Shown here: in pieces, positions 22,749-64,000 of the stretch | Layout of the letters: the number at the start of each line of letters is the position of its first letter | How positions within the stretch are numbered: the first letter of the stretch is position 1 | NCBI GenBank assembly: GCA_015067545.1 | Contig: SVMG01000008.1 | Location: 8,390-72,389 of the forward strand | Length of the DNA: 64,000 nt | From: Oscillospiraceae bacterium | Lineage (GTDB): Bacteria; Bacillota; Clostridia; Oscillospirales; Oscillospiraceae | Direction: 5' to 3' | Notes under the pieces: model-generated | The model's input: only the letters and a program-made list of their open reading frames with translations | Database searches by the model: none | What the model was told of the DNA's origin: nothing | Made by a program: the position numbers and the translations under genes

Positions 22749-22758
22749 AAAAATGTGC

Positions 22759-40824: not shown

Positions 40825-40942
40825 ATTATTTATCCTGTATTCTGAATTTTCCCGGGTTCATATGCGAAGATTTTGTTATATTGTAGCATATTTTCTCAAA
40901 AAATGCAACGAATCCGTTTTTGGTATCTTTTGGATTTCGAAA

Positions 40943-40967
40943 CAGGGCGCGGCATTGCCGCGCCCTG
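40943..40967. repeat. GC-rich stem-loop, copy 1
   Basis: CAGGGCGCGGCA-T-TGCCGCGCCCTG; same stem at 55459-55483, related stem at 58019-58039. Confidence 0.8.
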
Positions 40968-40993
40968 CCTTGCATAAGGAAAAATGGGCTTAC

Positions 40994-43213
40994 TCAGGGA
41001 TTATTGGGATCGAAGGTCAGGTCCGTTGTAATGAGGATCTGATCCAGCTGAACATTCGCGGCGTAGCTTCTGAACTGAATGGTATAAGTCTCACCAGCAG
41101 TCCAGTTATAGGTCTTATTCTCACCAACTTGTGAGCCATTGGCAGTATTGTGCGTATGGAATTCCTGATATACTCTGACCCAGTAGAAATCTGTAGCACT
41201 TGTAGAATACTCATTCTTGCCAGCTTTGTTCAAGGGCTGCCGCCAGAAGTAGGTATCGGTTTCATTATCATCGCCGATCCAGCAATACAGGGCATCGCCG
41301 CGGTCTGTAGCAGGCAGGTTTGTATTCGGGGCGTAGACTTTCAGCCAGACATAGACCTCTCCGCTCAGTTCGGATTCCACAGTATAGGTCGCGTGTGGGA
41401 TAGGATCCTTAACATAATGGCTGCTTGAGGGTCTCAGGTAATTATAACCCGATGCCATCTTCTCAAACAAAACCGTCTGACTGCCGGCTGCATTGGAATT
41501 GGTTTTTAGCGAAACGAGATCCTGGGTTTCTGTTTGAACATTATCTGTTCCGTCCTCTGCCAGCACGCCGGTCTCAGCTTCAATAATCACAGAATTGCTG
41601 GGGAACATACTCTCACCGCACTGGCAGAAACCGTTGGTGTAGACATGCTCATGGGTAATGATAAACTGATCCAGTGCGGCATAAGCGCAACCGCTGGAAA
41701 CGCGAATGGCATAAGTCTTTCCTGCGGTCCAATGATAAGCATACGCTGCCCCATACGGATGGTTGAAGTCTGCGGTAGTGATGGAACCGGTAGCAAAATC
41801 CGCAGGATCGCTGCAGGGGTTAGGTGTCTTTCTGTAGGTATACTTCGTTTCATCGGTAGTAGTATCGTCCTCAACCAGAACGCCCGTAAATGTTTTGTCG
41901 GCCGCTGTGTAGACACCGGAGACCTTTACTGTGTAAACACCGGATACGGACGGAGTCACATACACGATCACATCGCCGGGATGCTCTTTTCTGGTTACAT
42001 AGCTGGAAGCACCGTTAAGTTGATATGCCGAATGCAGATTGTTCAGCTTAACAAGCTTTCTGTCTGCAACATTGCTGTTGGTGATCAGGTTCACGTAGTT
42101 GGTATTCAAAACGGCATCTGCAGCATTGATGGTAATGGAAGTGCCATCCATCACGAATACCTTCTCCTTATCACAGGATTCGCAAAGGCCATTTACATAC
42201 ACATGTCCATTGTGCCAGCAGCGCACAGCATTGCCGTAACGCATCATGGCATCGGTCAGCGCCTTCAGGTCGGCATCATATTCGCCGTTGGCAACTGCAT
42301 AGGCATAGCTTTCTACAGAGTAGATGAGTTTATCGCTCTCCCAGTCTGCGCTGGAGTTAAAGGCATTGGAATAGACCAGAGCGCTGATCTTCTCGCTGAG
42401 CTGGGTGGGATCCAGCACGCCTAAGTACACATAGTAGTGATCCTCAGTACCTTCTACCTTTTCGAAGTTACTGACATAAACATTCATGGATTTGTCTTCA
42501 TTCCAGAAGCGAACTGACAAATTCTCGATGCTGGGTGCTTTGATCTCATAGCGCAATGTGATGGAGTCCTTCAGATTCAGGCCCACGCCAACCCAGTCCA
42601 CCGTAGTCGGGGTCGGATCAGCTTCGGCACTGTACTCGAAAGTTTTGCTGTGGTTCGTCAGGCTCAGAGTGCCGGTGGTAGCCAGTGCAGCATACTCGCC
42701 CAGATCCGCATTGACCAAGGGAGTGGTTGCTTCTGCAAAGGTCTGGGTGGCTGCGCCGTAGTTCAGCAGATCCACCAGCATGGTGCGCAGCTCCGCATTC
42801 TTCCATGCCTCAGTGTTGCTTTCGTTTCTCAGAATGGTCATGCAGTAATCCTTAATGGAAGTGCTGAATTCGTCCTTGACCTCACCGCCGATATACAGCT
42901 TGGCGGTAACGGTTTCGCCCATCTGAGCAGGGGTCAGCTTTGTGCAGCGGAAGGCTACATTGCCATCTTCATCTGCTTCGGGCAGTGTGGTTCTGGTCTG
43001 CACCAGCTCCTCGCCCATGTAGAATTCCACTTTCTCGAAGCCTTCTTCGATGGCAGCCCGATTTGCAATAAAGCTGATAGAAATATCGTTCTGCAGATAC
43101 AGATTGTAGCCGGTAAATTTCGGCTCTGCGACCTCACCGGCCGCTCCCGCCATGGGCACGATGCTCAGCAGCATGGCCATGATCAGAAGCAAGGATAGAA
43201 TCTTTTTCTTCAT
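40994..43213 (-). CDS. Secreted non-catalytic modular protein A (two tandem unknown domains, His/Cys spacers, two CBM-like beta-sandwich modules)
   Basis: Signal MKKKILSLLLIMAMLLSIVPMAGA; tandem domains ending LLNYGAATQ and MMRYGNAV; last module YVWLKVYAP...YFWRQPL...LDQILITTD matches the lyase modules; ATG 43213 (GTG 43222 possible). Confidence 0.8.
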   Translation of the reverse strand: MKKKILSLLLIMAMLLSIVPMAGAAGEVAEPKFTGYNLYLQNDISISFIANRAAIEEGFEKVEFYMGEELVQTRTTLPEADEDGNVAFRCTKLTPAQMGETVTAKLYIGGEVKDEFSTSIKDYCMTILRNESNTEAWKNAELRTMLVDLLNYGAATQTFAEATTPLVNADLGEYAALATTGTLSLTNHSKTFEYSAEADPTPTTVDWVGVGLNLKDSITLRYEIKAPSIENLSVRFWNEDKSMNVYVSNFEKVEGTEDHYYVYLGVLDPTQLSEKISALVYSNAFNSSADWESDKLIYSVESYAYAVANGEYDADLKALTDAMMRYGNAVRCWHNGHVYVNGLCESCDKEKVFVMDGTSITINAADAVLNTNYVNLITNSNVADRKLVKLNNLHSAYQLNGASSYVTRKEHPGDVIVYVTPSVSGVYTVKVSGVYTAADKTFTGVLVEDDTTTDETKYTYRKTPNPCSDPADFATGSITTADFNHPYGAAYAYHWTAGKTYAIRVSSGCAYAALDQFIITHEHVYTNGFCQCGESMFPSNSVIIEAETGVLAEDGTDNVQTETQDLVSLKTNSNAAGSQTVLFEKMASGYNYLRPSSSHYVKDPIPHATYTVESELSGEVYVWLKVYAPNTNLPATDRGDALYCWIGDDNETDTYFWRQPLNKAGKNEYSTSATDFYWVRVYQEFHTHNTANGSQVGENKTYNWTAGETYTIQFRSYAANVQLDQILITTDLTFDPNNP

Positions 43214-43241
43214 AAAATTCACCTCATTTCATATTTGCCGG

Positions 43242-43376
43242 TCATCCGATGGGAATGATCGGTGTGGGGATACCGCCGCCGGTGTTTTCATTGTCTTCCA
43301 GCTCACCGCTCACTGTCAAGATGTTCTCGGCTTGGAATTTCAGAATCTCCAGCCTAGGTTCCAGAAATTCTTTCAT
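43242..43376 (-). CDS. 44-aa RiPP-precursor-like peptide A
   Basis: AAAGGAGG-N7-ATG; MKEFLEPRLEILKFQAENILTVSGELEDNENTGGGIPTPIIPIG; paralog at 57853-57987. Confidence 0.85.
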   Translation of the reverse strand: MKEFLEPRLEILKFQAENILTVSGELEDNENTGGGIPTPIIPIG

Positions 43377-43454
43377 ACTATTTCCTCCTTTTTGAAAATT
43401 TATATGCATGGGGCGACCGCCGCCGCGCCCATGGAATATACTTGTATGCCGCTT

Positions 43455-43483
43455 TGGCATAGCCACAAATTGCGGCTATGCCA
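43455..43483. other. Intergenic stem-loop between lyase A and peptide A
   Basis: TGGCATAGCC-ACAAATTGC-GGCTATGCCA, no U-tract; second imperfect stem at ~43407-43434. Confidence 0.65.
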
Positions 43484-43521
43484 GAAGTGGTTCATGCTGT
43501 TTTGAACGATCCGACAACGCC

Positions 43522-46500
43522 TTAGTTTTGCACGTAAGGATCATTCGCATCCGTGGTGATGTAGATCTCGTCGATCTGCACACCTGCAGTGTAGCCTCTG
43601 AAGCGCAGGGTATAGGCTTCACCGGCCTTCCAGTTGTAAACTCTGTCCGCACCCACCTGCGCTGTCGTATCAATCCGCTGATATACACGGACCCAGTAGA
43701 AATCTGTCTTGCCCTGGGAATATGTTCCATCCGCCTTCTTCAGGGACTGACGCCAGAAGTAGGTATCCGTTGCTTCGCCTTCCGCATTCATTCCGTCGAT
43801 CCAGCAGAAAACAGCATCGCCGCCGGCCCAGCTAACCGAATTGGGCGCATAGACCTTCAGCCAAATGTAGTATTCACCGGTCTGATCCGGGATTACACTG
43901 AAGGAGGCATGTGCGTTCGGAAATACGCCTTCCACCTCGGTCAATGTACCATTCACCAGGGTTCGATTGAGGGACAGTGCGTAGTAATTTGTATGCGTCC
44001 AGTTGAAGTACAGCGTTGCGCCGGCCGATGCCGCGGAATTGGCCTTTACTTTGGCAGGTGCATCTGTACTATTGGTGGTTACATTTTCCATGCCCGGTGC
44101 TGCGATCACTGCATTTTCACCCTGCAGAGTGCCCTTGCCGTTTGTCAACTTCACCGGTTCCAGCATGTTACAGACAGAGCAGTAACCATTGACAAAACTG
44201 TGGTTGCCCACATTGGCCTTGTCGCCGCAGACACATTGATGCCAGTGCTGTGTTCCGTCGAATGTCCAACTCTCGTTGAAGGTGCAGATATGCGCAGGAC
44301 GGACATAGCCGCAGTCATTGCAGGTAGTGTCCTTCAGATTGTCATAGATGTGTTCTGCCTTGCCGTTTATCAGCTCGTCATGGCCACAGTTTGCCTTGTG
44401 CCAGTGATAGGTCTCATCCTTTTCCCAGGCAGCGCTGAAGGAGTGGTTGTGAGGAGCATCATTGGGATCATTGGTGATATAGATCTCGTCGATCTGCACG
44501 CCTGCAGTGTAGCCTCTGAAGCGCAGGGTATAGGCTTCACCGGCCTTCCAGTTGTAAGCTCTGTCCGCACCCACCTGTGCTGTCGTATCAATCCGCTGAT
44601 ATACACGGACCCAGTAGAAATCTGTCGCGCCCTGGGAATATGTTCCATCCGCCTTCTTCAGGGACTGACGCCAGAAGTAGGTGTCCGTTGCCTTGCCTTC
44701 CTCATTTGTACCGTCGATCCAGCAGAAAACTGCGTCGCCGCCGGCCCAGCTAACCGAATTGGGTGCATAGACCTTCAGCCAAATGTAGTATTCACCGGTC
44801 TGATCCGGGATTACACTGAAGGAGGCATGTGCGTTCGGAAATACGCCTTCCACCTCGGTCAATGTACCATTCACCAGGGTTCGATTGAGGGACAGTGCGT
44901 AGTAATTTGTATGCGTCCAGTTGAAGTACAGCGTTGCGCCGGCCGATGCCGCGGAATTGGCCTTTACTTTGGCAGGTGCATCTGTACTATTGGTGGTTAC
45001 ATTTTCCATGCCCGGTGCTGCGATCACTGCATTTTCACCCTGCAGAGTGCCCTTGCCGTTTGTCAACTTCACCGGTTCCAGCATGTTACAGACAGAGCAG
45101 TAACCATTGACAAAACTGTGGTTGCCCACATTGGCCTTGTCGCCGCAGACACATTGATGCCAGTGCTGTGTTCCGTCGAATGTCCAACTCTCGTTGAAGG
45201 TGCAGATATGCGCAGGACGGACATAGCCGCAGTCATTGCAGGTAGTGTCCTTCAGATTGTCATAGATGTGTTCTGCCTTGCCGTTTATCAGCTCGTCATG
45301 GCCACAGTTTGCCTTGTGCCAGTGATAGGTCTCATCCTTTTCCCAGGCAGCGCTGAAGGAGTGGTTGTGAGGAGCATCATTGGGATCATTGGTGATATAG
45401 ATCTCGTCGATCTGCACGCCTGCAGTGTAGCCTCTGAAGCGCAGCGTGTAGGTCTCCCCGGCAGTCCAGTTGTAAACTCTGTCCGCACCCACCTGCGTTG
45501 TCGTATCAATCCGCTGATATACACGGACCCAGTAGAAATCTGTCGCGCCCTGGGAATATGTTCCATCCGCCTTCTTCAGGGACTGACGCCAGAAGTAGGT
45601 GTCCGTTGCTTCGCCTTCCGCGTTCATGCCGTCGATCCAACAGAAAACAGCATCGCCGCCGGCCCAGCTAACCGAATTGGGCGCATAGACCTTCAGCCAA
45701 ATGTAGTATTCACCGGTCTTATCCGGGATTACATTGAAGGAAGCGTGCGTGCTCGGCAGCATGCCATCCAGAGTCTGATTGTTGAACAATTTGGCATAAT
45801 CCGTATGGTTTCTGTTGAAGTGCAGTGTTGCGCCACCCGATGCAGCAGCATTGGTCTTCACTGTGGCAGGTGCATCTGTATAGTCGCTGATCACGTTTTC
45901 CATGCCAGGCGCTGCCACTGCTGCATGTTCGCCCTGCAAGGTTCCTCTGCCGTTTGTCAGCTTCAGCGGCTCCATCATATTACAGACAGAACAGTAGCCA
46001 TTTGCAAAGCTGTGGCTGCCCACATTGGTCTTTTCACCGCAGGCACATTGGTGCCAGTGCTGGGTGCTGTTAACGCTCCAGCGCTCGCTGAAGGTGCAAA
46101 CATGCTCAGGACGGACATAGTTACAATCGTTACAGGTGGTGTCCTTCAGATTATCATAGTTATGCTTGGCCTTACCGGTGATCATGCCCGTATGGCAGGA
46201 GGACGTCCACCAGTGATAGGTGTCATCATAGCTCTTCAGAGAATTCCAGGTGTGATTATGCGGCACATCGCTTGCGCTGTTTGTGATGTAGATCTGATCC
46301 ACCCGGACACCGGCTACTGTTCCTCTGAAGCGCAGAGCATAGGTCTGCCCGGCAGTCCAGTTATAGGTATGGTCCGCAAACTTTTCTGTATTTTGTTTCC
46401 ATTCCTGGTTCAGGCACACCCAGATGTAATCCCCTTCACCCTTGGAGTATCCGTTCAATGCCAGCGGCTGACGCCAGTAGTAGGTATCCGAACCGCCATC

Positions 46501-49500
46501 CACATATGCATAGATATATGCACCATAGGACGCATTCGCGGGGGCGTACACCTTCAGCCAGATGTAGTATCGCCCGGTCCTTTCAGGCGTTACCAGTACG
46601 CTCAGGTGCGGGATCGGTGTTGTGCCTTGATCCGGGAATGTATTCCAGCCGGAATTCGTTCTGACGAACTGCACAGCCTTACCGCCCTCTGCTTCGGCAC
46701 TTTCCACAACCTTAACAACAGCGCCTGTGTAATCAGGAATATGGTTTTCCTTACCGTCCGGTGCAAGCATCAAATTTTCTGCTTCCAATGTCAGCTTTCC
46801 GCCGGAGATCGTAAAGGGTGCCAGGCCGCCGCAGATGGTACACTTGCCGTCTGCATAATTGTGGGGCGCATAATTGGGATTCTTGTAGCCGCAGGTATTG
46901 CATTCCTTATCCGTATGATCCTCAAAGAAATGCTCAGCGTAAGCTCTGGGGGCTACATTCTGGCATCCACAGGTGGCATCGAACCAGTGATGGGTATCAT
47001 TGCCGTTCCATGTGCTGCTGTAGGAATGGTTATGCGGTGCGTCCTTCGGATCGTTGGTGATCAGAATTTCGTCCACCTTTACGCCAACAGACATGCCTCT
47101 GAGACCGATGGTATAGACTCTGCGGGCTTTCCAGTGATAGGAATGCTCTTTATGCAGACCCGCTGCCATGCTCGTGTACTCCTGATACAGTCTGACCCAG
47201 ATGTAATCCTCTTCGTCTGCAGAGTAGGTCTCCATAGTCAACGGCTGCTGCCAGAAATAGTAGTCGTCACCGCCGTCGATCCAGGCGTAGATAAATGTAC
47301 CCTTCGGTGCATAAAGCTTGACCCAGATATAGTACTCGCCGCCTTCATCCGGCATCACTTGGAAACTCAGATGCGGTGTTGCTTCCGAAGTGGCATTCGC
47401 CAATTGATTCCATGCACTGTGCTGTCTCATAAAGCGAACTGCCTTACCGCCTGCCGCACCAGCGCTTTCCACAACCGCTGCAACTTCACCCTTGTAATAG
47501 CTATTCAGATCGGTAGCATCCAAAATGACCGTTTCCTCACCTGCAGGCTGCAGCTTTGCCTCTTCTGCCTGAACGGTGATCTTACCGCCACTGGTCTTGA
47601 ATACGCCCTGCGGCAATTCACAGGTTGTGGTAAACGAGCCAAAGGTTACACCCTTGGAGCAGGTCTTGATGCGCACGTAGATGGACTCAGCAGCCTGAAT
47701 GTTCACCTCTCCCAGCTTAATCTTGACATACTGGTTTGCCGACACTGCGGCAACCTCACTCAGGTCGCACAGGGTGTATTTAAAATCGTCATCATTTGCA
47801 GAAATTGCATAGAAGAACTGATCATTACTCAGACTGCTTACCTTAACGGTGGCATAGATGGAGTAGATACCACTGGTATCCGTAAGGATATTCAGGGACA
47901 GATCACCGGGCAGATTCTTCGTGCTCAGCACATAGTCCTTGTAGGCCTCGCTTACAGTACCGTCCGCAGAAACAGACTGCAAACGCGCATCATTTCCGGA
48001 GGCTTTCGCCATAGAATGCTCATAAATGGTATCCTTGGCATTGACAGATACGATACCGCTGGTGCTGGTCTTCTTGCTGTAGCAAGCTTCATAAGGCACA
48101 TAGCTTGCATCGGGCGAGACTATGAAGCAGTCAAAGACAAGACCTTCACATCCGGAGATCACGGACAGGGTGTATGCCTCTCCAGACGTCCACTTAGCCA
48201 GTGCAGTTTGATCCTCATACTGACCCAGCTTGATCCATACGTAACCATCCTTATCTTTCTTACCTACATTGATTTTTTCAGGATAGTAGGTATTGCCGGT
48301 CACGCCGTCAATGTTGACCCAGATGGTATCCCCGGAGGTCACCTTGGATGCATTGACCTTAGCCCAAATGTAATGCACCGCTGTGCGCCTTGGGATAAAG
48401 GTGGCAGAGAGTTGCGGTTTCGCTGCATCCACCGTACCGGGATTGGTGGTATATCCCACATTGGAAATGACCACTTCACGACCGGACGCATTGTTATCCT
48501 GTTCCACCTTTACCGTGTCTTCCTTGTTAAAGCATTCTGCCTCAGCAAGCAATGTTTGACCGATAACCTCGGCACCGTTGGGATCGATGACTGCTTTCTG
48601 CAGGAAGATGATTTCCGTCACGATGCTCCAGCCATTGTCAATTGTGGAATTCTGCTTACCGGAAGTCATATATCTGTAGCGGCCATGGCCGACAAATTTG
48701 ACATATCTGGCCTCTTCGCTCATGGGCAGCGTCAGATAAGTATTCAGCCATGTATAACGCCCCACTTCGCCTGATTGCGCTTTATCGTAAACCGTCTCCC
48801 AGTTTACACCGTCCGTGGATACTAAGAGATCAAAGATGTAATTACTGTAGGCACTCTCATCGCCCCAGAAATAGAGAACAACGTCTGTCAGCTGAATGGT
48901 CTTGCCGAAATCAAAAATTGCTTCACAGATGTTATTTCCGGATTTCTGACTGGTCCAGCGGGTGGTAATATCACCATCCAGCGCTTGAATCACGGGCAGG
49001 GTGGAGTATCCGTTGTCGATGACCGCCTCTACCTGCGCCGCAGTGGGGAACTTGTACAGAATTTCATCAGACAGTAAAGGAACATTGTTGTCAATATTTA
49101 CCGTAACACGAATGCGGTTAATGAAACGGTCATAATACATGGAACCCTCGACCAGCTTCATAAGTGTCGTCGAATCCATCAACAGATCACCGGCCGCCGC
49201 ACGGATCTCGTTGAATGCAACCGATTCCCCGTTAGCTGTCAAGGAATTGGCGGTTATGACATAGACAACACCCTTGTACCGAACTGTATAAGCAGTTTTG
49301 TCCTTATTCCAGGAACCCTTGCCGTTCAGTGCATCAAAAATGACGGTAACGGGGAACAGGTAATCCTCACCGGACTTCACGGGATGTGCATCGGTATAAT
49401 AGTAGAAATTGTTGATCATGATTCCGATGGGCTCTTCTTCCACGATCGGAGTCTCATCAAAGGTCTTATTGCTTTCGGATCCGGAACGAACCAGTTTCAC

Positions 49501-52605: not shown

Positions 52606-52701
52606 ATTCAGACCTCGCTTTCAGTTTGATGCCCACCGGACATCGGGTGTGTATGTTGACGGAAGACGCTCCCGAAAAACATCCTATAATTTTTCCCTAT
52701 A

Positions 52702-52818
52702 CTAGCATAAAAATTATCGTGATTTTTTACAAGAAAGTATTTCATCGTTACTGGAAAATTCTTAAGATTATAACAAAAGCGACTGCCCACACGGCAGTCG
52801 CTTAAATATTGGTTTTGC
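52702..52818 (-). promoter_or_regulatory. Terminator plus promoter block, copy 2, upstream of lyase A
   Basis: Ungapped match to 39912-40028 with 10 mismatches; promoter boxes and direct repeats intact. Confidence 0.75.
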
Positions 52819-53030
52819 ACGGTTGGTTGGGACGCATCCCGCGGATATGCCCATATTTCCCAGAAAATCCATGGATGATTACCCGTTTCAGTCCATATAG
52901 CACCATTATTTTCCATATGCTTCTTTTACTGTCACCCGGATGCCGCCACTCACAGCCGGTCTTTTCCCGCTGGGATGCTGCGATCAATATTCTGGCAGAT
53001 CCTTCACAAACTGGAAATAAAATAAGATAT
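52802..53030 (-). pseudogene. Decayed remnant of the 270-aa AraC gene
   Basis: Ends GMRPNQPCKTNI* versus GMTPSQLRKTNI*; CTGGAAATAAAATAAGAT (ILFYFQ) shared with ~40552-40569; most of the gene deleted. Confidence 0.65.
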
Positions 53031-53039
53031 CGCTGCGCA

Positions 53040-53067
53040 AAAAGGACATCCCGCAGGATGTCCTTTT
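53040..53067 (-). terminator. Terminator of the 723-aa regulator gene
   Basis: AAAAGGACATCC-CGCA-GGATGTCCTTTT. Confidence 0.8.
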
Positions 53068-53072
53068 GCAGT

Positions 53073-55244: not shown

Positions 55245-55458
55245 CGCTGCCTGCACTCCTTTCGTTGTTTTTTGTGGCATGGCTTTATTCCATTATTGTA
55301 TGCATTTCTTCACTTTTTTGCAACAGTCAATAATTTCCAGTTTTCCGAAGTCTTGGGAAATCCTCTGATTGTATTATACAGAATCTTTTCGGCAACTTCA
55401 TCCCCATATTTTTGCAAAAGACCCGTGTTTTTACATTTTTGGCTCTTTTGCAAAAAAA

Positions 55459-55483
55459 CAGGGCGCGGCAATGCCGCGCCCTG
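55459..55483 (-). terminator. GC-rich stem-loop, copy 2, with U-tract
   Basis: CAGGGCGCGGCA-A-TGCCGCGCCCTG followed on the minus strand by T7. Confidence 0.8.
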
Positions 55484-55523
55484 CTGTAATTAATAATGTA
55501 TGTCTTGCTTAAGATGAATAAAG

Positions 55524-57824
55524 TTATTCAGCAGGAGTAGTGCAAGTAATAACGAACTGGTCGATTGCTATACGGGTGCTACCACTTGCAACACGAATTG
55601 CATAGGTTTTGCCTGCAGTCCATTGATATTCCGTACCATAGACCATGGGAATGATCGAACCACCACTAAAACTTGCAGGAACACTACAGGGATTAGGTGT
55701 CCACCTAGGTCCGAATTTTGTCTCACTGGTGGTAGTATCATCCTCAACCAAAACACCTGTCAAAGTAACATTGGCCCTTGTGTAAACACCGGTGGTTGCC
55801 ACTGTATAGGTACCGGATATCGAGGGTGTAACATACACGATCACATCACCAGGATGAACTGCGGTCGTTACATAAGCATTATTGATGTATGCAGAATGAG
55901 CATTGTTCAGCTTAACAAGCTTTCTGTCCCCAACATTGGAATTCGTGATCAGCTCCACATAATCCGTATTTAAAATAGCCTCTTCGGCATTGATGGCGAT
56001 GGTATTGCTATCCATCACGAACACGCGTTGCTTACCACATTCGCAAACACCGTTGGTATAGGTGTGCTCCACCTTGCTCTCGTCCAGGTCGGTGCAGCCA
56101 CAGGTGTAATCATACCAGTGGTGGGTATCGTCATATGCAATCTCCTTGGTGTGGACGTGTCTTTCCTCACCACAGCCATTGCAGGTGATATCTGCATCAT
56201 CGTCATAGGTATGAATATGTGTGATCGTAAACTGGTCATAACCAATGTTGGAACTGGTGGCCAAGAGGCGGATCGCATAGGTCTTGCCGGCTACCCACTG
56301 ATAACTGTCACCAAATTCAACAGTCGTAAACTTCGACATTTCTGCAAAAGATTTGCCGGTCTCTGTTGCTTCTGCAATTCGCATATACTGATAATAAGTA
56401 TTCTCTGTGGTGGATTCATCCTCCACAAGATAGCCAACAGCGGCAGCACCCTTGGTTGCTACCAATGCTTCAATCTGATAGGTGCCACTCTTTGCAGGAG
56501 TCACATACATAATGACATTACCGGGATATGTCGCCGGAGCATGCACAATCGTCTGATCCACTGCTACCTGGGTTATATATGTTTTAGCATCACTGTAAAC
56601 AAAGCGGGTAGCACTCTCTACAGTCGTTGTGGCAAAGCGCTTATTGAAGCTGATAATGCCCCCAGACTTCGCATTCTCATTAGAAGCGCTATTGACCGCA
56701 CCATACTCATTTGTTTTTATATTCAAGACGGCTTTGTTAACGTCAATGGTAATGGTGTCGGTAGTCATTCCAAATACCTTTTCCTTGTCACAGGATTCAC
56801 ACTTACCATTCACATACACATGGCCGTTGATCCAGCAGCGCACGGCATTGCCGTAACGCATCATAGCATCGGTCAGGGCCTCCAGTTCTGCAGAGAAGCC
56901 AGTGCCATTTGCAACGGCGTATGCATAGCTTTCTGCAGAATACATCAGCTTGTGACTTGTACGGACGCTGTCCTCAGTATTGTAGGCTAAATAGGCTACT
57001 GCGCTCACTGTTTCGCTGAGCTGGGCAGGATTCAGCATGCCGAAATAGGCATAGTAGTGATCCTCAGTGCCCTCGACCTTCTCAAAATCAGTAACCCATG
57101 CATCAAGAGTCTTGCCGTCATTGAAGAAATGGATTGCCAGACCTTCAACGCTTTCAGCCACGAACTCGTAGCGCAGTGTAACGGAATCCTTCAGGTTCAG
57201 GCCTACGCCGTACCAGGTAACAGTAGGTGCGGTAACATCTGTATACTCATACAGACTGCATGCATTAGTCAGGCTCAGATTACCGGTGGTAGCCAGTGCA
57301 GCATACTCGCCCAGATCCGCATTGACCAAGGGAGTGGTTGCTTCCGCAAAGGTCTGAGTAGCCGCGCCGTAGTTCAGCATATCCACCAGCATGGTGCGCA
57401 GCTCGGCATTCTTCCACGCCTCAGTGTTGCTTTCGTTTCTCAGAATGGTCATGCAGTAATCCTTAATGGAAGTGCTGAATTCATGCTTGACCTCGCCGCC
57501 GATATACAGCTTAGCGGTAACCGTTTCGCCCATCTGAGCAGGGGTCAGCTTTGTGCAGCGGAAGGATACATTACCGTTTGCGTCTGCCTCAGGCAGAGTC
57601 GTTCTGGTCTGCACCAGTTCCCCGTCAATGTAGAATTCTACTTTCTCAAAGCCTTCTTCAATAGCAGCCCGATTTGCTTCAAAGCAGATTGCAATATCGT
57701 TCTGCAGGTACAGATTGTAGCCGTTGAATTTCGGCTCGGCAGCTTCGCCGGCCGCTCCTGCCATGGGCACGATGCTCAGCAGCATGGCCATGACCAGAAG
57801 CAAGGATAGAATCTTTTTCTTCAT
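55524..57824 (-). CDS. Secreted non-catalytic modular protein B, paralog of 40994-43213
   Basis: N-terminal ~200 aa nearly identical to paralog A; C-terminal modules differ. Confidence 0.8.
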   Translation of the reverse strand: MKKKILSLLLVMAMLLSIVPMAGAAGEAAEPKFNGYNLYLQNDIAICFEANRAAIEEGFEKVEFYIDGELVQTRTTLPEADANGNVSFRCTKLTPAQMGETVTAKLYIGGEVKHEFSTSIKDYCMTILRNESNTEAWKNAELRTMLVDMLNYGAATQTFAEATTPLVNADLGEYAALATTGNLSLTNACSLYEYTDVTAPTVTWYGVGLNLKDSVTLRYEFVAESVEGLAIHFFNDGKTLDAWVTDFEKVEGTEDHYYAYFGMLNPAQLSETVSAVAYLAYNTEDSVRTSHKLMYSAESYAYAVANGTGFSAELEALTDAMMRYGNAVRCWINGHVYVNGKCESCDKEKVFGMTTDTITIDVNKAVLNIKTNEYGAVNSASNENAKSGGIISFNKRFATTTVESATRFVYSDAKTYITQVAVDQTIVHAPATYPGNVIMYVTPAKSGTYQIEALVATKGAAAVGYLVEDESTTENTYYQYMRIAEATETGKSFAEMSKFTTVEFGDSYQWVAGKTYAIRLLATSSNIGYDQFTITHIHTYDDDADITCNGCGEERHVHTKEIAYDDTHHWYDYTCGCTDLDESKVEHTYTNGVCECGKQRVFVMDSNTIAINAEEAILNTDYVELITNSNVGDRKLVKLNNAHSAYINNAYVTTAVHPGDVIVYVTPSISGTYTVATTGVYTRANVTLTGVLVEDDTTTSETKFGPRWTPNPCSVPASFSGGSIIPMVYGTEYQWTAGKTYAIRVASGSTRIAIDQFVITCTTPAE

Positions 57825-57852
57825 AAAATTCACCTCATTTCATATTTACCGA

Positions 57853-57987
57853 TCACCCAATGGGAATTACCGGTGTGGGAACGCCACCGCCAGTGTTTTC
57901 ATCATCTTCCAGTCCACCGCTCGCGGTTAGGATGTCCTCGGCATGGAATTTCAGAATCTCCAGCCTAGGTTCCAGAAATTCTTTCAT
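57853..57987 (-). CDS. 44-aa RiPP-precursor-like peptide B (absent from the ORF track)
   Basis: AAAGGAGG-N7-ATG; MKEFLEPRLEILKFHAEDILTASGGLEDDENTGGGVPTPVIPIG; 37/44 identical to peptide A. Confidence 0.85.
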   Translation of the reverse strand: MKEFLEPRLEILKFHAEDILTASGGLEDDENTGGGVPTPVIPIG

Positions 57988-58018
57988 AGCATTTCCTCCT
58001 TTTTAAAATTTATTTTCG

Positions 58019-58039
58019 GGGTGCGGCAATGCCGCACCC
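58019..58039. repeat. GC-rich stem-loop, copy 3, upstream of peptide B
   Basis: GGGTGCGGCA-A-TGCCGCACCC, with compensatory changes relative to copies 1 and 2; no U-tract. Confidence 0.75.
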
Positions 58040-58082
58040 TCTGATTTTGGATCAAAACGGAAATTGTATCAACACTGCATGA

Positions 58083-61000
58083 TTATTCTGCAGAAACAAT
58101 TCCGCTAGGGGTGTAGTTTGCATCGGTAGTGATTACAAACTGGTCAATCACACATACACTCTTATTTGTTGTAGTTGCGATCTTGATATGATATTCGTTT
58201 CCAGCAGTCCAAACCGGAGTCACAGTAAGTTTCTGCCAACCAATGGTTGTGCTACTTTCATCGAGTGTAGTAGTAGCAAAGCCGACATATCGATAGCCCG
58301 TTTTACCGGTTGTTGGATCCTTTTCATTATAACCGATATCATCAGCCCACTCATCGCCAGAAACCCAAACATTGCAACCTCCGCCTGAGCTACGATAGCC
58401 CATACGGACCCAAATGTAATATGTGCCGCTTTCATTGGGATTGACAACTGCGTCAATACTTGCTTCGACAGAATCCGTACCATCCAAGGCAGATGCATTG
58501 TCATTCTTTGTAGAAAGATGCACAACATAACCGCCGCTGGCTTCGGCATTCTCTTTCTTGGTCGCATAAGTGGTGCTTGCCTGCCAAGCCTCTGCCTCGA
58601 TTACCGCATGGCCGTTCACTGTACTGGCGGCCTCGCGAGCACCGCAGGTGCAGACCCCGTTGGTAAACACGTGAACATGTCTTTCCGCACCGCAGGTATT
58701 GCAGGTTGTGTCCGCATCGTCGGTGAATACATGCTCGCCCTTTTCGGACACCTGGTCGGCATGCTCGCAGGTTGCGGCATGCCAATGGTGGGTGTCGTTC
58801 GTGGTCCACTGGGTGGAGAAAGTATGCTCATGGTTTTTCACATATGGGTCGTTTAGGTCAGTACTGATATAAATCTGGTCAATCAAATTGCCTGTTGCAA
58901 AATTTCTCAGATTTACTGTATAGGTTTCTCCGGCAGTCCAGAAATAGGCCTTATCAATCTTATAATAATCATCCCGATTCAGTAGGACCCATTCCCATTC
59001 ACTGCTTTGGGTCGTAACCTGCTTCCAGTAGTAGGTATCTGTGGGCTGGCCGTTCTCATCGTTGCCTTGGATATAGCAATACATGCCCGTTCCCTTTGTT
59101 CTGACCCAAATGTAGTACTGTGCAGTCGTATCTGCTGTCACTGCTACGGAAATGTGCGGGATTGCAGTTAGGCCTGCATTTTTCATTGTAGGTGCATAAC
59201 TGAGACCACGGTTGGCTTTTACATAAGTCACGCCGTCGGCAGTGCCTACATCCACCACATCATTCCAAAATACACTGCCATTCATAATGACATTTTCCGT
59301 ACCATTTTCAGCCAGATTTGCATTTTCAGCTTCCACGGACAGTTTACCGCCGGACATTTCCATAGGTTGCAACATTGAGCATCCTGTGCAGACCCGGTTC
59401 TCAAAGGTATGCTGGGCGTAGTCTTTCCTGTCACCGCAGAGACATTCGTGCCAGTGGTGGGTAGTATTGTAACTCCAGGCATCGGCATACACATGCTCAT
59501 GTGCAGGTCTTTCATAGCCACAATCGGAGCAAATGGTGTCGAGAATTGTCTCATAGTTGTGTTCGGCCTTGCCGGAGATCAACTCGACATGATCGCAGGT
59601 TGCCTTGTGCCAGTGGTGCGTAGCATCCTTCTCCCATTCACTGCTGAAGGTATGATTGTGAGGAGTATCCCCAGGATCATTGGTGATATAAATCTCATCA
59701 ACCTGTACACTGGAGTTGTGAGCGCGGAAGCGCAACGTGTACATCTCACCGGCCGTCCAGGTATAGACCTTATCCGAACCGTTCTGAGGATACATACCAC
59801 CGGTACTGTAGGTGTCCTGCATGAATTCCTGATATACTCTGACCCAATAGAAATCCGACGTATTTTCGGAATAACTTCCGTCTGCCTTCTTCAACGGCTG
59901 ACGCCAGTAGTAACTGTCATTTCCTCCGTCAATGTACGCATACAGCGCATTATTCGTACTACTGGAAGGAGCATATACCTTCAACCAAATGTAGTACTCG
60001 CCGCTTGCATCCGGAATCACGGAGAACATCATATGCGGATACGGATCAAAACCGGCCGACTTCATGCCAGATGCATTGGTATATCCTCTGTTGACCTTGA
60101 CTGCTGTGCCGTTGGCAGTAACAGACATTACCTGCGTCGGATAGAACTGCGTGGAATTAGAGGGATCCATGATGTAGTTTTCTGTTCCAGCCGGTGCCAA
60201 AGTGGTATTTTCGGCCTGAACAGTCAATTTACCGCCGCTGGTATTGAAGGGTTTGCCAACATTACAGGTAGTACAAGCAACTGCATCAAAGCTGTGCGTA
60301 CTGTAATCTGCCTTATCGCCGCAAGCACATTCATGCCAGTGGTGCGTAGCATTGTAGCTCCAGGTTCCGCTGTACACATGCACATGGTCGGGTCTGACAT
60401 GGCCGCAATCATTACAGGTGGTGTCCAACAGATTATCGTAGGTGTGTTCAAACTTCGCTACAATCTTATCAGTATGCTCACAAGTTGCCTTACGCCAGTG
60501 GTAGGTATCGTCCTTTTCCCAACTGGTGCTGTAAGTGTGGTTATGCGGGATGTCCTGAGCACTGTTGGTGATATAAATCTGATCCACGCGTACACCAGCA
60601 ACTGTTCCTCTGAAGCGCAGAGCGTAAGTCTGGCCTGCCGTCCAATTGTATGTATGATCGGCAAACTTCGTGGTAGTGCTCTGATATTCTTCGGATATGC
60701 GAACCCAGAAGTAGTCCATCTCACCCTGAGAATAACCGTTTAAATCCAGAGGTTGACGCCAGTAGTAGGTGTCGGAACCGCCCTCAATATAGGCATACAA
60801 CGCCGCACCGTACCTAGCATTTTCAGGAGCATACACCTTCAGCCAGATGTAGTATTCACCGCTCTTGTCTGGGGTCACCAAAGCACTTACGTGCGGGATC
60901 GGTGTGGTTCCTGCTTTCAAGAAGCTGTTCCAAGCAGAATTGGTCTTTGTAAACTGTACTGCCTTGCCGCCTTCTGCATCAGCGCTCTCCACAACCTTAA

Positions 61001-64000
61001 TCACACTGCTGGTGTGGTTGGGAATGTGATTTTCCTTACCATCCGGCGCCAGCATCAAGTTTTCTGCTTCCAGAGTCAACTTGCCGTTGGAGGTAGAGAA
61101 AGGTGCCAGTCCGCCGCAGATGGTACACTTGCCATCCACATAATTGTGGGGGGCGTAGTTGGGGTTGGCGTAGCCACAGGTGTTGCATTCCTTATCGGTA
61201 TGATCCTCAAAGAAGTGCTCCCCGTAATATCTGGGCTCTGCATCGGAGCAGCCGCAGGTGGGGGCATACCAGTGGTGCGTTGCATCTGTACTCCAATTTT
61301 CTGCGTATTTGTGATTGTGCGGTGCATCATTCGGGTCATTTGTGATGTATATCTCATCGACCTGTACACCGGCATACATACCTCTAAGGCCGATGGTATA
61401 GATCCGGCGGGCTGTCCAGCTATAAACATGTTCTGTATACTGCCCTATGCCGGTTTTGTCCAGTTTGTTCTTCGCTTCCTGATACAATCTTACCCAAATA
61501 TAATTATCCGTATCTGCAGAAGAAGTCTCCCAGGTCAGCGGCTGACGCCAGTAGTAATAGTCGTCGCCTCCATCAATCCATGCATAAAGAGCTGTGTTCT
61601 CTACGGCATAAACCTTGACCCAAATGTAGTACTCACCACTCTTGTCGGGCATTACCTGGAAACTAAGGTGCGGTGTGGCTTCAGAAGTCGCAGTTTTCAA
61701 ATCCACCCAACCCGTGTGCGTCTTTGGGAACTCAACAACTTTACCGCCTACTGCACTTTCCTTATTTACCACTTGGGCAACTTCGCCGGAATAATAGGCT
61801 CCCTTGTTAACGATGATGGTCTCCTCGCCTGCCTTCTGCAGCTTGGTATCCTCAGCCTGGATGGTCACCTTGCCATCAGTAGTGGTGAAGACGCCGGTAA
61901 TGGGTTCACAAGTCGTAGAGAGGGTACCGATGGTAACACCGTTAGAGCAAGCCTTGATACGAACATAGATGGATTCGCTTGCCTGGATCTCCACCTCGCC
62001 CAGTTTGACCTTGACGAATTCCCCGACTGTAACGGAAGTCATCTCGCTCAGGTCGCCGAGTTTGTAGTTATATTCGGCATCGTTTGCAGAAACCGCATAG
62101 AAGAACTGATCTCTGCTTAGATTGCTGACCTTCATCGTTGCCCAAATGCTGAACTTACCGCTGGTGTCGGTAACAATATTCAAACTGATATCACCGGGCA
62201 GATTATCTGTCTTCAGAACATAGTCAATATATGCCTGGCTGACGGTGCCGTCAGAGGAAACAGACTGCAGTTTAGCGCCAGTGCCGGATGCCTTCGCCAT
62301 GGAATGCTCATAAATCGCATCCTTTGCGTCAACAGACAGTTCTCCTTCGATGGAGGTCTTTTTGCTGTAGCACTCATCATAGGGCACGTAGGCTGCGTTA
62401 GTCGTCAGGATAAAGCAGTCAATGACCAGGCCTTCACAACCGGAAATCACAGACAGGGTGTATTCCTCATTTGCCTTCCACTCAGTAAGGGCAGTTTGGT
62501 CTTCATACTGGCCCAACTTGACCCATTCAAAGCCATCCTTGTCCTTCTTACCAACATTGAGTTTTTCAGCATAGTAGGAATCACCGGTAATGCCCTCAAT
62601 ATTGACCCAAAGGCTGTCACCCGAAGTAACCTTTGAAGTATTCACCTTTGCCCAAATATAATGAGCGGCGGTTTTTTGCGGAATAAAGGTTGCGTACAGC
62701 TGCGGTGCATTTGCGACCACTGTTCCCGGATTGGTGGTGTAAGCCACCTTCATGAGTACCTGCTCTTTGCCGGAAGCTGCACTGTTTTTCTCGATAACCA
62801 CGGAGGCATTGCTGCCATCAGACTGCATATTGAAGCATTCAGCTTCTGCCAACAACTTGCTGCCTGCAACAGGTGCACCATTGGGATCAATGATCGACTT
62901 CTGCAGGAATACAATTTCTGCAATCTGAGTCCAGGTGTTGTTCGGCGAGGCAGTAGGCCGGCCTGCGTTGGTATATCTGAAACGACCGTGTCCGACGATC
63001 TTAACATATCTCGCCTCGCAGTCCAACAAGAAGGTTGCATATGTTTCATGGTACGTCTTGGGGCTAATCTCTCCAGATCTTGCTTCTTCGTGAAGCGGGA
63101 TGTATTCAACACCATCTACAGATACAAAGATATCAAAAACGTAGTTGCTGTAATATTTTTCTTCTGTCCAGAACATAATCATTACTTCAGTCAGTGGCAC
63201 GACCTTACCCAGGTCGTATATGCCTTCAGTAATGTTATTGCCGGACTCCTGGCTACACCAACGGGTAGTGGTGTCTCCATCTATACTGTTAACCATACCC
63301 AAAGTGGAGTAACCATTGTCAATGAGCCCCTGCACTTGAACCGCAGTGGGGTAATCATACAGTATATCGTCAGACAGAGCAGGAATTGCTGCCTGCGCAT
63401 CCGTGTTCAAACGGATACGATTGATATACTTGTCGTAATACATTTCTCCTTCTTCAGCGACCAGAGCCTTGAGAGTGGTCATATCAAGCAACAGGTCTCC
63501 GTTAGCGGATCGCATCTCATTGAATTCAATTACCTCTCCATCTCTGGTGATGGAGTTTGCTGTGAATACATAGGTAGCTGTCTTATACAGCACAGTATAC
63601 TCTGTACCTTCTCTGTTCCACTGTCCCTGGCCGTTCAGTGCATCAAAAATCGTTGCAACAGGAACCAGATAGTCATCACCGGATACTACCGGATGCACAT
63701 CAGTATAGTAGAAGAAATTGTTAATCAGCAAGCCAATGGGTTCTTCTTCGGTAATAGGAGTCTCATCAAAGGTCTTGGCACTTTCAGATCCGGAGCGAAC
63801 CAGTTTAACAGTGCCGGCAGTAGCCTCAAAGTAAATCATACCGCCATCCTCAGATGCTACCTGCGTGCCGATGGAACTGCCATTGACATACACCGTCCAA
63901 GTACCGGCCTTCAGACCTGCCACATTCACCTTGAAAGTCTCATAGCCTTCACTCTTGGGAATACTGAAGGAGACATCCTGGCTGATGCGGTTGTTGCCAT
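58083..64000 (-). CDS. Paralogous giant lyase B, 3' part (N-terminus beyond the right edge)
   Basis: Frame stays open to the window edge (DGNNRISQDVSFSIPK versus DGNHRISSDVSFTIPQ in lyase A); same order of Cu-oxidase-N-like, F5/8 and beta-sandwich modules; catalytic domain not visible, so inferred. Confidence 0.8.
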   Translation of the reverse strand, partial: GNNRISQDVSFSIPKSEGYETFKVNVAGLKAGTWTVYVNGSSIGTQVASEDGGMIYFEATAGTVKLVRSGSESAKTFDETPITEEEPIGLLINNFFYYTDVHPVVSGDDYLVPVATIFDALNGQGQWNREGTEYTVLYKTATYVFTANSITRDGEVIEFNEMRSANGDLLLDMTTLKALVAEEGEMYYDKYINRIRLNTDAQAAIPALSDDILYDYPTAVQVQGLIDNGYSTLGMVNSIDGDTTTRWCSQESGNNITEGIYDLGKVVPLTEVMIMFWTEEKYYSNYVFDIFVSVDGVEYIPLHEEARSGEISPKTYHETYATFLLDCEARYVKIVGHGRFRYTNAGRPTASPNNTWTQIAEIVFLQKSIIDPNGAPVAGSKLLAEAECFNMQSDGSNASVVIEKNSAASGKEQVLMKVAYTTNPGTVVANAPQLYATFIPQKTAAHYIWAKVNTSKVTSGDSLWVNIEGITGDSYYAEKLNVGKKDKDGFEWVKLGQYEDQTALTEWKANEEYTLSVISGCEGLVIDCFILTTNAAYVPYDECYSKKTSIEGELSVDAKDAIYEHSMAKASGTGAKLQSVSSDGTVSQAYIDYVLKTDNLPGDISLNIVTDTSGKFSIWATMKVSNLSRDQFFYAVSANDAEYNYKLGDLSEMTSVTVGEFVKVKLGEVEIQASESIYVRIKACSNGVTIGTLSTTCEPITGVFTTTDGKVTIQAEDTKLQKAGEETIIVNKGAYYSGEVAQVVNKESAVGGKVVEFPKTHTGWVDLKTATSEATPHLSFQVMPDKSGEYYIWVKVYAVENTALYAWIDGGDDYYYWRQPLTWETSSADTDNYIWVRLYQEAKNKLDKTGIGQYTEHVYSWTARRIYTIGLRGMYAGVQVDEIYITNDPNDAPHNHKYAENWSTDATHHWYAPTCGCSDAEPRYYGEHFFEDHTDKECNTCGYANPNYAPHNYVDGKCTICGGLAPFSTSNGKLTLEAENLMLAPDGKENHIPNHTSSVIKVVESADAEGGKAVQFTKTNSAWNSFLKAGTTPIPHVSALVTPDKSGEYYIWLKVYAPENARYGAALYAYIEGGSDTYYWRQPLDLNGYSQGEMDYFWVRISEEYQSTTTKFADHTYNWTAGQTYALRFRGTVAGVRVDQIYITNSAQDIPHNHTYSTSWEKDDTYHWRKATCEHTDKIVAKFEHTYDNLLDTTCNDCGHVRPDHVHVYSGTWSYNATHHWHECACGDKADYSTHSFDAVACTTCNVGKPFNTSGGKLTVQAENTTLAPAGTENYIMDPSNSTQFYPTQVMSVTANGTAVKVNRGYTNASGMKSAGFDPYPHMMFSVIPDASGEYYIWLKVYAPSSSTNNALYAYIDGGNDSYYWRQPLKKADGSYSENTSDFYWVRVYQEFMQDTYSTGGMYPQNGSDKVYTWTAGEMYTLRFRAHNSSVQVDEIYITNDPGDTPHNHTFSSEWEKDATHHWHKATCDHVELISGKAEHNYETILDTICSDCGYERPAHEHVYADAWSYNTTHHWHECLCGDRKDYAQHTFENRVCTGCSMLQPMEMSGGKLSVEAENANLAENGTENVIMNGSVFWNDVVDVGTADGVTYVKANRGLSYAPTMKNAGLTAIPHISVAVTADTTAQYYIWVRTKGTGMYCYIQGNDENGQPTDTYYWKQVTTQSSEWEWVLLNRDDYYKIDKAYFWTAGETYTVNLRNFATGNLIDQIYISTDLNDPYVKNHEHTFSTQWTTNDTHHWHAATCEHADQVSEKGEHVFTDDADTTCNTCGAERHVHVFTNGVCTCGAREAASTVNGHAVIEAEAWQASTTYATKKENAEASGGYVVHLSTKNDNASALDGTDSVEASIDAVVNPNESGTYYIWVRMGYRSSGGGCNVWVSGDEWADDIGYNEKDPTTGKTGYRYVGFATTTLDESSTTIGWQKLTVTPVWTAGNEYHIKIATTTNKSVCVIDQFVITTDANYTPSGIVSAE

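Follow-up and report, generated by a model that had tools for sequence, protein, structure and literature searches.

A 64,000-nucleotide (nt) stretch of the genome of an Oscillospiraceae bacterium (contig SVMG01000008.1, positions 8,390 to 72,389), referred to here in its whole length as the window, contains on its minus strand two paralogous gene units, each consisting, in this order, of a gene for a giant lyase of polysaccharide lyase family 21 (PL21), a hairpin, a gene for a peptide of 44 amino acids (aa), 28 nt of spacing, a gene for a secreted protein of about 740 aa, designated the partner, and a further hairpin. An initial annotation had noted the same gene order twice on this strand, and every element that it listed was found in both copies, including the 28 nt between the stop codon of the peptide gene and the ATG of the partner gene. 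A membrane AraC/Cache regulator sits between the two units. When lyases, peptides and partner modules were compared, the paralogy of the two copies was far above chance: lyase1 and lyase2 are 54% identical across about 2086 aa, peptide1 and peptide2 are 84% identical, and the N-terminal modules of partner1 and partner2 are 76% identical. Judged from the sequence, the window appears to hold two polysaccharide-lyase loci of an uncultured gut clostridial bacterium, each with a putatively membrane-anchored PL21 lyase and a bicistron for the peptide and a carrier of carbohydrate-binding modules (CBMs), and the peptide-partner pair appears to be a 'satellite' copy of a clostridial system that is widespread and so far without a name. 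At the heart of this system there would be a tandem module of the partner and a leader peptide, to which in many genomes a twin-tailed stalk protein and a set of processing genes would be added.

In the first unit, lyase1 (3027 aa) is encoded at 43522–52605 and is separated from the peptide gene by a spacer of 145 nt that contains two hairpins (43407–43483, z-score −3.8), the second of which keeps its structure in relatives despite base changes. The open reading frame (ORF) of peptide1 (43242–43376; MKEFLEPRLEILKFQAENILTVSGELEDNENTGGGIPTPIIPIG) is preceded by AAAGGAGGAAAT, and partner1 (739 aa) extends from its ATG at 43213 to its stop at 40994, a 742-aa version of this ORF with a GTG start being a listing artefact. 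Behind partner1 lies a hairpin (40941–40969) with a 13-bp stem and a weak U-run, the stem having nearly the same sequence as the terminator after partner2. In the second unit the window contains the C-terminal 1971 codons of lyase2 (58083–64000), whose frame is open to base 64000 and whose N-terminus lies beyond the window end; in the related contigs L220–L223 the full length is 2932–2945 aa. Lyase2 is followed by the hairpin GGGUGCGGC-AUU-GCCGCACCC (58018–58040), with no clean U-run behind it, by peptide2 (57853–57987; MKEFLEPRLEILKFHAEDILTASGGLEDDENTGGGVPTPVIPIG), which has a strong Shine-Dalgarno (SD) sequence, by partner2 (55524–57824, 766 aa), with its ATG 28 nt past the peptide2 stop, and by an intrinsic terminator (55457–55485) with a 13-bp stem, a subsequent run of seven U and a z-score of −6.0.

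Partner1 is composed of a signal peptide (residues 1–27), the tandem module (residues 29–345), Zn-ribbon-like CxxC linkers and two CBM-like jelly-rolls (about residues 352–522 and 541–729). Partner2 is composed of a Sec signal peptide, the tandem module with its NYGAA/RYGNA motifs, which matches the hidden Markov model (HMM) of the module at 5e-104, Cys-rich linkers and CBM-like beta-sandwiches. The partner had been described as sharing beta-sandwich modules with the lyase, and this is borne out by its last domain, which is 40–42% identical to the lyase repeats (E 5e-46). No match to Pfam, NCBIfam or PDB sequences was obtained for the partner. A full-length AlphaFold2 (AF2) model of partner1 (pLDDT 74) matched CBM22 tandems, CBM35, Cry toxin domains and ancillary domains of GH115 in Foldseek with a probability of about 1 and with low TM-scores, the model being a multi-domain one. 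From the lack of a family match, the jelly-rolls of CBM type and the likeness to the lyase repeats it follows that the partner is a non-catalytic carrier of probable CBMs, the C-terminal sandwiches in the models being probable carbohydrate-binding modules. As stated earlier for the partner, no cohesin, dockerin or S-layer homology (SLH) domain was detected by Pfam and no LPxTG-like motif was seen, and this applies to lyases and partners alike.

The module itself (residues 29–345) was modeled by AF2 with 31 homologues at a pLDDT of 91.6 and a pTM of 0.88, and the model shows two repeats, each with a seven-stranded sandwich followed by a helical hairpin. Comparison of this model with the PDB by Foldseek gave just generic tandem Ig/FN3 matches with a TM-score of about 0.2, and we are confident that the modeled module represents a new fold arrangement. 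Searching 1.84 billion cluster representatives (clustered at 50% identity) with the module profile detected 12,722 proteins with E ≤ 1e-3, of which 9,052 reach E ≤ 1e-10, and in nearly all of the best 150 of the 12,722 the module ends at the last residue of the protein. Among the carriers surveyed, just the cassette subfamily and a few others have it at the N-terminus. The carriers, which possess ordinary Sec signal peptides, include LRR_5, GH43, GH3, GDSL, C-type lectin, cohesin, transglutaminase-like and Glug proteins. Pfam and NCBIfam contain no model for the module, and none for the peptide.

Peptide2 matches the HMM of the peptide family at 5.6e-18 and is identical to cluster P0003. A narrow family of 12 clusters was delimited first; its members keep the segments MKEFLEPRLEIL.F.AE.IL and DENTGGG..TPV.P.G and vary in the middle. 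The first sign of a wider family was a 44-aa ORF in contig L013 (MLNSFDAPKIEVVFFNESDIITTSG..GIKLPDDNW), which has the same kind of leader and lies 29 nt past the gene of a protein with a C-terminal module. A peptide profile search then gave at least 492 clusters of 32–62 aa, which are named just 'hypothetical' in public sources and contain no Pfam domain. The family has a conserved leader with the consensus Y/F..P..E[IV]..F..ED[VI][IL]TTS, followed by a variable acidic tail. Among 234 unique peptides the leader is conserved at Y/F5 (99%), P8 (95%), E11 (94%), [IV]12, F15 (97%), E18, D19 (96%), [VI]20, [IL]21, T22 (93%), T23 (81%) and S24 (95%). Behind the leader there is a variable stretch rich in Gly, Asp and Glu and often a hydrophobic, Pro-containing end, such as GIVLPDDEW, PIELPDIEL, ELPFVPV or TPVIPIG, and the mean net charge of the peptides is −7. 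The window peptides fit this pattern, with a conserved leader (positions 5–24) and a variable C-terminal part; for peptide1 we infer a leader of aa 1–23 and a tail or core of aa 24–44, and the peptide sequence that would pair with partner1 aa 29–345 is GELEDNENTGGGIPTPIIPIG. An SD-like motif was found upstream of 25 of 33 peptide ORFs, compared with a background of 10%, and the leader is kept as protein across genera through different codons. By these sequence features the peptide has every appearance of a real, translated gene.

Some peculiarities of the peptide genes were observed in addition. In every copy of the narrow family (43341–43376 and 57952–57987 in the window, and L001, L008 and L011) the ORF opens with the same 36 nt. 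This applies even to L011, with a partner protein of only 30% identity, and all 22 leader codons are common to peptide2 and the L011 peptide. Gene conversion among paralogues or a constraint at the nucleotide level could be the cause. In the metagenome contig L112 (6323–7067) the leader motif opens an ORF of 248 codons in which TTS is changed to TTR, and this ORF could represent a peptide gene altered by read-through or fusion. Among about 215 proteins of more than 100 aa that were examined, no natural fusion of module and peptide was found.

The linkage of peptide and partner proposed in the initial annotation is real. The 28-nt spacing recurs in every relative examined (34 nt in L011 and L012), and the whole cassette is kept in L011 with its 30% identical partner. 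In one relative (L008; European Nucleotide Archive ERZ1767626 NODE_2816, 3326–5708), peptide1, partner1 and the downstream genes are present, and the lyase, the second cassette and the upstream AraC sensor are missing, with housekeeping genes in their place. The lyase part is in this respect subject to a presence/absence polymorphism; the conserved unit consists of peptide and partner, and the lyase is optional. With regard to transcripts, a gut metatranscriptome (X2) contains one contig on partner1, and a run of uncertain type marked 'RNA?' (X1) contains a 464-nt contig that bridges the end of lyase1, peptide1 and the start of partner1, which is suggestive of, and not conclusive for, co-transcription of lyase, peptide and partner.

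The linkage also extends beyond this one duplication. A sample of 79 independent genome loci was drawn with the module as the sole criterion, and it spans different species, including Ruminococcus (with R. flavefaciens ND2009), Roseburia, Eubacterium coprostanoligenes, Mageeibacillus, Faecousia, Acutalibacteraceae and others. In this sample a peptide of the family adjoins 41 of the 83 module ORFs with enough flanking room, where 0.6 would be expected by chance (binomial P about 5e-61). In 37 of the 41 adjacent cases the peptide lies just downstream of the module ORF, most gaps being under about 90 nt, and seen from the side of the peptide, 41 of 49 matches in these loci adjoin a module ORF. 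A second sample was picked by the leader, using a degenerate DNA pattern over metagenome contigs, and yielded 128 peptides at 120 loci, of which 62 lie within 400 nt of a module gene and 22 have too little flank to judge. Three abundant database peptides each directly follow a secreted protein of 1337–1720 aa, and two of the three carry the module at their end. Single genomes hold several peptide genes at scattered sites, every one next to a module gene, and the pair accompanies LRR, GH43, GH3, GDSL, lectin, cohesin and transglutaminase-like proteins.

In locus L094, the ORF following the peptide encodes a low-complexity protein that is anchored by a transmembrane segment and ends in TIELPFIPAK. 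Such stalk proteins of 113–202 aa, made up of a lipoprotein signal or N-terminal transmembrane segment, a long linker rich in Ser, Thr, Asp, Glu and Lys, and a C-terminal tail resembling that of the peptide, are encoded at 15 of 134 non-redundant peptide loci when a match of at least 6 of 9 residues to the tail of the neighboring peptide is used as threshold. Permuted pairing of loci (200 permutations) gave a mean of 1.4 twin loci and a maximum of 6, and with a stricter match of at least 7 of 9 residues there were 7 twin loci versus 0.3 expected under permutation. Examples of twin tails are DKPIELPLVPLR and DEPIELPLVPLR in L210, LNLDENEWA and INIDENEWA in R. flavefaciens L091, and DDGLNWSPLVPV[EN], which is the twin tail in L192, L132 and L198. 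The two tails of L210 agree at 12 of 14 residues, and different codons encode 8 of these; for L175 and L132 the figures are 8 of 11 and 7 of 10, respectively. Tail identity is thus held at the protein level, and therefore the same tail appears to have been selected in two carriers. One of them, the stalk, certainly displays its tail outside the membrane, and the other, the peptide, has a leader that looks typical of processed peptides. These twin-tailed stalks are in keeping with the earlier suggestion that the NYGAA/RYGNA domain has its tag, signal or assembly factor in the peptide.

No third gene is universal at peptide loci, and the recurrent neighbors were counted in the 120 leader-picked loci. 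They are a ScmC/HprK-like P-loop protein of about 245 aa (PF27840 from a precomputed table, TIGR04249 weak; 27 loci), a PqqD-like protein of about 88 aa (PF05402; 26 loci), an S24/S26-like peptidase of about 150 aa (weak TIGR02228, with GDSM.P, LHR and GDN motifs seen by eye; 33 loci) and an NTP_transf_5 protein of about 380 aa (PF14907, 3e-42; 21 loci). A typical operon (L094, L139, L201) comprises genes for the module protein, the peptide, the ScmC-like protein, PqqD, the peptidase and NTP_transf_5. Genes for radical S-adenosylmethionine (rSAM)/SPASM proteins and ABC exporters are occasional, rSAM being encountered in 3 of about 200 loci (L078, L091, L136). From its motifs the peptidase would be a type I signal peptidase of the ER/archaeal (SipW-like) type, and since T(−3) and S(−1) of the T-T-S sequence fit the small-residue rule of type I signal peptidases, cleavage is placed, by inference, after S24.

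The observed anatomy, gene linkage, family sizes, tail twinning and absence of known anchors would be brought together, in the most far-reaching interpretation, by a docking system that is widespread in gut and rumen Clostridia, in which an end-module recognizes a tail carried both by a stalk anchor and by a processed, exported peptide, and in which the cassette of the window holds a CBM adaptor beside a lyase for glycosaminoglycans (GAGs); we give this reading a probability of roughly 0.4. The explanation that we prefer, a tail that is the ligand of the module and so mediates docking or release of module proteins at the cell surface, comes slightly closer to even odds; the module is the only other conserved element in the loci, and the tail as its ligand is the most economical reading. 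Processing, export, binding of the tail to the module and a role in GAG use are read from genomic context. In such a mechanism, the peptide would be made in the cytoplasm and recognized through its leader, might be modified, and would be exported following cleavage behind the T-x-S site. The module would be bound by the tail of the peptide, as by the identical one of the stalk, and the stalk would anchor module proteins, which would be docked at, or released from, the cell surface. The processed peptide might compete with, prime or modulate docking, acting as a soluble competitor or as a release or assembly signal, or might instead be a wall-attached ligand, possibly once the ScmC-like and NTP_transf_5 enzymes have given it a phospho- or glyco-modification. 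The module of the window would dock the CBM-bearing adaptor beside the lyase and in this way add glycan-binding modules at the surface.

Several observations weigh against this reading. About half of the module genes have no adjacent peptide, and 37 of the 128 leader-picked peptides adjoin no such module, most of them being located behind large secreted proteins with another C-terminal domain or ahead of processing genes. The leader-first sample is biased to leaders of the type P.[IM]E[IV][IV].F..ED[IV][IV]T and contains redundant strains. The leader is acidic and not hydrophobic, so that signal-peptidase-like cleavage stands as an analogy alone. Processing genes are absent from the 64-kb window and from its near relatives L001–L012, where a stalk ending in ..P[IV]IPIG was not found either, and the full system is for these reasons not established in the organism of the window; the HPr kinase encoded at 12846–13853 is an ordinary full-length housekeeping enzyme. 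The initial annotation had suggested that the locus may be a surface system for the capture of GAGs. Of that interpretation the link between peptide and partner stands and the specificity for GAGs and the lyase does not, as L008 has the pair without the lyase, as module and peptide accompany secreted proteins of many kinds, and as the module HMM did not find the NYGAA/RYGNA module in the lyase; processing genes and leader anatomy had not been foreseen.

A second class of large secreted proteins, with C-termini like ..A[RK]GY.....D..G...T.YS.. in place of the NYGAA module, was observed to directly precede peptides with the same leader (L098, L101, L103, L108, L109, L148, L158, L160, L172 and L216), and therefore the system may use more than one receptor domain.

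Among the alternatives, the one that survives best, at odds we consider low, is that the peptide is an ordinary precursor of a ribosomally made, post-translationally modified peptide (RiPP), such as a bacteriocin or pheromone, that is merely co-regulated or co-inherited with a module whose role is unrelated, for example cell-wall binding. A leader of the type bound by RiPP recognition elements (RREs), a variable core, and nearby genes for PqqD, ScmC/HprK-like and NTP_transf_5 proteins, occasionally with rSAM/SPASM and an ABC exporter, are what such a precursor would show, and PqqD, ScmC/HprK-like and NTP_transf_5 proteins are accessory families of the lasso-peptide clusters of Firmicutes. However, the adjacency of peptide and module, with its mostly short gaps and 41 of 49 peptide matches beside a module ORF, is too tight and too general, several peptide genes spread over one genome, every one next to a module gene, are not what antibiotic clusters usually show, and a diffusible antibiotic does not explain a leaderless membrane stalk with the same tail.

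Clearly less probable is a peptide that stays in the cytoplasm, as a chaperone or plug for the module of the nascent secreted protein or as a factor that targets it to a dedicated export step. The peptide has no signal peptide and is very acidic, and the position of its gene directly against that of the partner suggests that the two are translated in a coupled way. But module proteins with ordinary Sec signal peptides would cross the membrane unfolded, the stalk twin shows its tail outside the cell, and the set of PqqD and peptidase points to processing and not to stoichiometric chaperoning. We regard as improbable that the small ORF is a cis-regulatory leader, that is, an upstream ORF or attenuator for translation of the partner, whose amino acid sequence is irrelevant. 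The fixed 28-nt spacing, the hairpins just upstream and the identity of the first 36 nt in all near relatives, L011 with its diverged partner included, would suit such an element, but the peptide gene is downstream of the module gene in 37 of 41 family cases, genera agree in the amino acids of the leader and differ in its codons, and some loci have tandem peptides or stand-alone peptides beside processing genes. Small ORFs are easily over-called, and yet a duplicated GAG-utilization locus in which the peptide ORF is a functionless remnant or gene-calling artefact is hardly credible in view of at least 492 clusters, SD motifs, position-specific conservation and strong synteny.

The docking system proposed here resembles the cohesin-dockerin pairs of cellulosomes and amylosomes in that diverse secreted enzymes would be held at the cell surface in a modular, non-covalent way via a common end-domain, which in the present case is proposed from genes, and it occurs in the same taxa, the window itself encoding a cohesin protein (321–1961). 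It differs from them in that both domains are lacking in the lyases and partners, in that the presumed receptor is a module of about 300 aa without a solved relative, and in that the presumed ligand is a tail of about 10–20 residues on a stalk and on a leader peptide, and not a Ca-binding dockerin. Parallels also exist with tapA-sipW-tasA operons, in which a dedicated signal peptidase of the ER/archaeal type is encoded together with secreted beta-sandwich proteins and a small anchoring partner, and possibly with donor-strand complementation, as in TasA fibers and chaperone-usher pili, since here too a short strand-like segment of one protein could complete or bind the sandwich of another. There is no sequence relation to TasA or TapA, the leader found here is of a cytoplasmic type and not a signal peptide, and strand insertion would in this case be pure conjecture.

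With the RiPPs that depend on RRE or PqqD, namely lasso peptides of the paeninodin/pseudomycoidin type and the SynChlorMet system of Haft, the peptides have in common a short precursor, a Y..P.L-like leader and a variable C-terminus. The neighboring PqqD, ScmC/HprK-like and NTP_transf_5 genes recall the HPr-kinase-like protein and nucleotidyltransferase of lasso clusters and the ScmC, PqqD-like and rSAM proteins of SynChlorMet. In contrast, no lasso cyclase or B2 protease appeared in any locus, rSAM is rare, the place of the protease is taken by a SipW-like signal peptidase, precursor genes occur at scattered sites next to those of large secreted proteins, and a leaderless membrane stalk carries the same tail. 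Individual RiPP classes were rejected as candidates. For a lasso peptide, which the Y..P.L-like leader would suggest, neither an Asn-synthetase-like cyclase nor a transglutaminase-like B2 protease was among the recurrent neighbors, the Thr, which in lasso leaders stands at position −2, has another register here and varies within the narrow family, and the ring acceptor (Asp/Glu at core position 7–9) is not conserved. For a double-glycine leader (C39/PCAT), GG follows TTS in a minority and no recurrent C39 transporter was seen. A reading as sacti- or ranthipeptides or other rSAM RiPPs does not hold in general, as rSAM was found near 3 loci and 85 of 113 database peptides are without Cys.

Among open-access papers and preprints, none was found that describes the peptide family or the module, or that pairs the two. 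The accessory enzymes belong to known RiPP-associated families; to our knowledge, no known system combines an end-module on thousands of secreted proteins with a leader peptide, a membrane stalk of twin tail and a signal peptidase of its own. How the abundant gut and rumen Clostridia without cellulosomes, SLH domains or sortase signals hold their large proteins for glycan degradation and adhesion at the cell surface is, as far as we know, largely unknown, and the set of module, peptide and stalk provides a testable receptor-ligand hypothesis. The pairing is also a handle to annotate thousands of 'hypothetical' proteins and missed small ORFs. If the docking reading is true, PqqD, the HprK-like kinase, the nucleotidyltransferase and the signal peptidase would serve protein localization and not antibiotic production, and the locus would hint at the way in which foraging on host glycans is organized around a heparinase-II-type lyase and a CBM adaptor.

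The designation of the lyases as PL21-like agrees with the alignment of lyase1 aa 367–1040 with the heparinase II structure 2FUQ (E 4e-73), and HepII_C (PF18675, 7.6e-11) and F5/8-C domains were detected in the lyases by Pfam. Lyase2 matches HepII_C, F5/8-C and Cu_amine_oxidN1, and the related full-length lyase2 proteins contain heparinase domains. Lyase1 matches the NCBIfam model NF045571 for HepB at 5e-106 with 355.4 bits, below the equivalog cutoff of 600 bits that would stand for the same function as HepB, and is by its sequence a member of PL21. Residues H202, Y257, H406, H408, D425 and H451 of HepII all align with identical residues in lyase1; H202, Y257 and H406 are those which we take to be catalytic, and H408, D425 and H451 are presumably the Zn ligands. 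Like heparinase II from Pedobacter heparinus (PL21; PDB 2FUQ and 3E80), lyase1 thus has the key residues, and unlike it, lyase1 is four times longer and has an extra N-terminal domain, a putative membrane hairpin, F5/8-C and at least six CBM-like modules.

Lyase1 begins with a signal peptide, a small N-terminal domain of about 110 aa, a linker rich in Pro and Thr and a pair of hydrophobic segments, followed by the heparinase II-like region (aa ~250–1040), F5/8-C and then the CBM-like modules, which are separated by Cys/His-rich, Zn-ribbon-like linkers. The two adjacent hydrophobic segments, located around KRRG at about aa 145–195 (within aa ~139–195, window about 52020–52180, minus strand), look like a membrane hairpin anchor or like a fused upstream gene with a second signal peptide. 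The view that the locus is free of known anchors consequently stands for cohesin, dockerin, SLH and LPXTG and does not stand for lyase1, which has a predicted membrane anchor of its own. The last CBM-like modules of lyase1 are three tandem repeats of 918 nt (306 aa) that are 93–100% identical (43537–46290, minus strand), and lyase variants among strains have 2415, 2721 or 3027 aa, in steps of 306 aa, so that the copy number of the repeat is polymorphic. The linkers follow the pattern HNH..W....THHW..C.C ... C..C ... C..C, with a weak match to NF047912 (CxxC zinc-binding), and were located at aa ~1855–1925, 2110–2200, 2410–2500 and 2715–2805 of lyase1 and at aa ~525–600 of partner2. Antisense to lyase1 runs an ORF of 1788 aa (43408–48774, plus strand) that is repetitive, rich in Cys and Arg and mirrors the lyase repeats; it is almost certainly no gene, because gene calls on related contigs list none. 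Likewise, an ORF of 102 aa just 5' of lyase1 (52608–52916, minus strand) is probably no gene, as it has no family match and is not called in related contigs.

The regulator between the two cassettes (53073–55280, minus strand, 735 aa) is of AraC type, with an N-terminal transmembrane segment, a Cache-like domain and HTH_18; Pfam matches are HTH_18 (7e-18), HTH_AraC and a weak dCache_1. Its position is kept in relatives, and it is the probable substrate sensor of the locus. A terminator-like hairpin (52777–52803, minus strand) lies 3' of the regulator and 5' of lyase1. Downstream of the first cassette, Pfam identifies on the same strand an AraC/cupin regulator (40012–40824), a Zn-dependent dehydrogenase (38859–39884) and a GFO/IDH/MocA oxidoreductase (37801–38856), which occur in identical order in L005–L010 and probably serve sugar catabolism and its regulation, their membership in the system being uncertain. 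The gene surroundings are those of an ordinary chromosome and not of a mobile element. Upstream of the cassette region, genes for glycogen phosphorylase, GH77 4-alpha-glucanotransferase and a MalK-type ABC ATPase form a glycogen/maltodextrin set (18607–23967), and genes for Mfd, VanW and HtpG are also found near there. The cohesin protein mentioned above, a 546-aa protein on the minus strand with cohesin domain PF00963 (1e-8), is adjoined by a 683-aa protein with phage-lysozyme, Big_3, SH3 and Listeria-Bacteroides-repeat domains (1989–4040, minus strand), and as the window encodes this cohesin protein, the organism also has surface machinery of the cohesin type.

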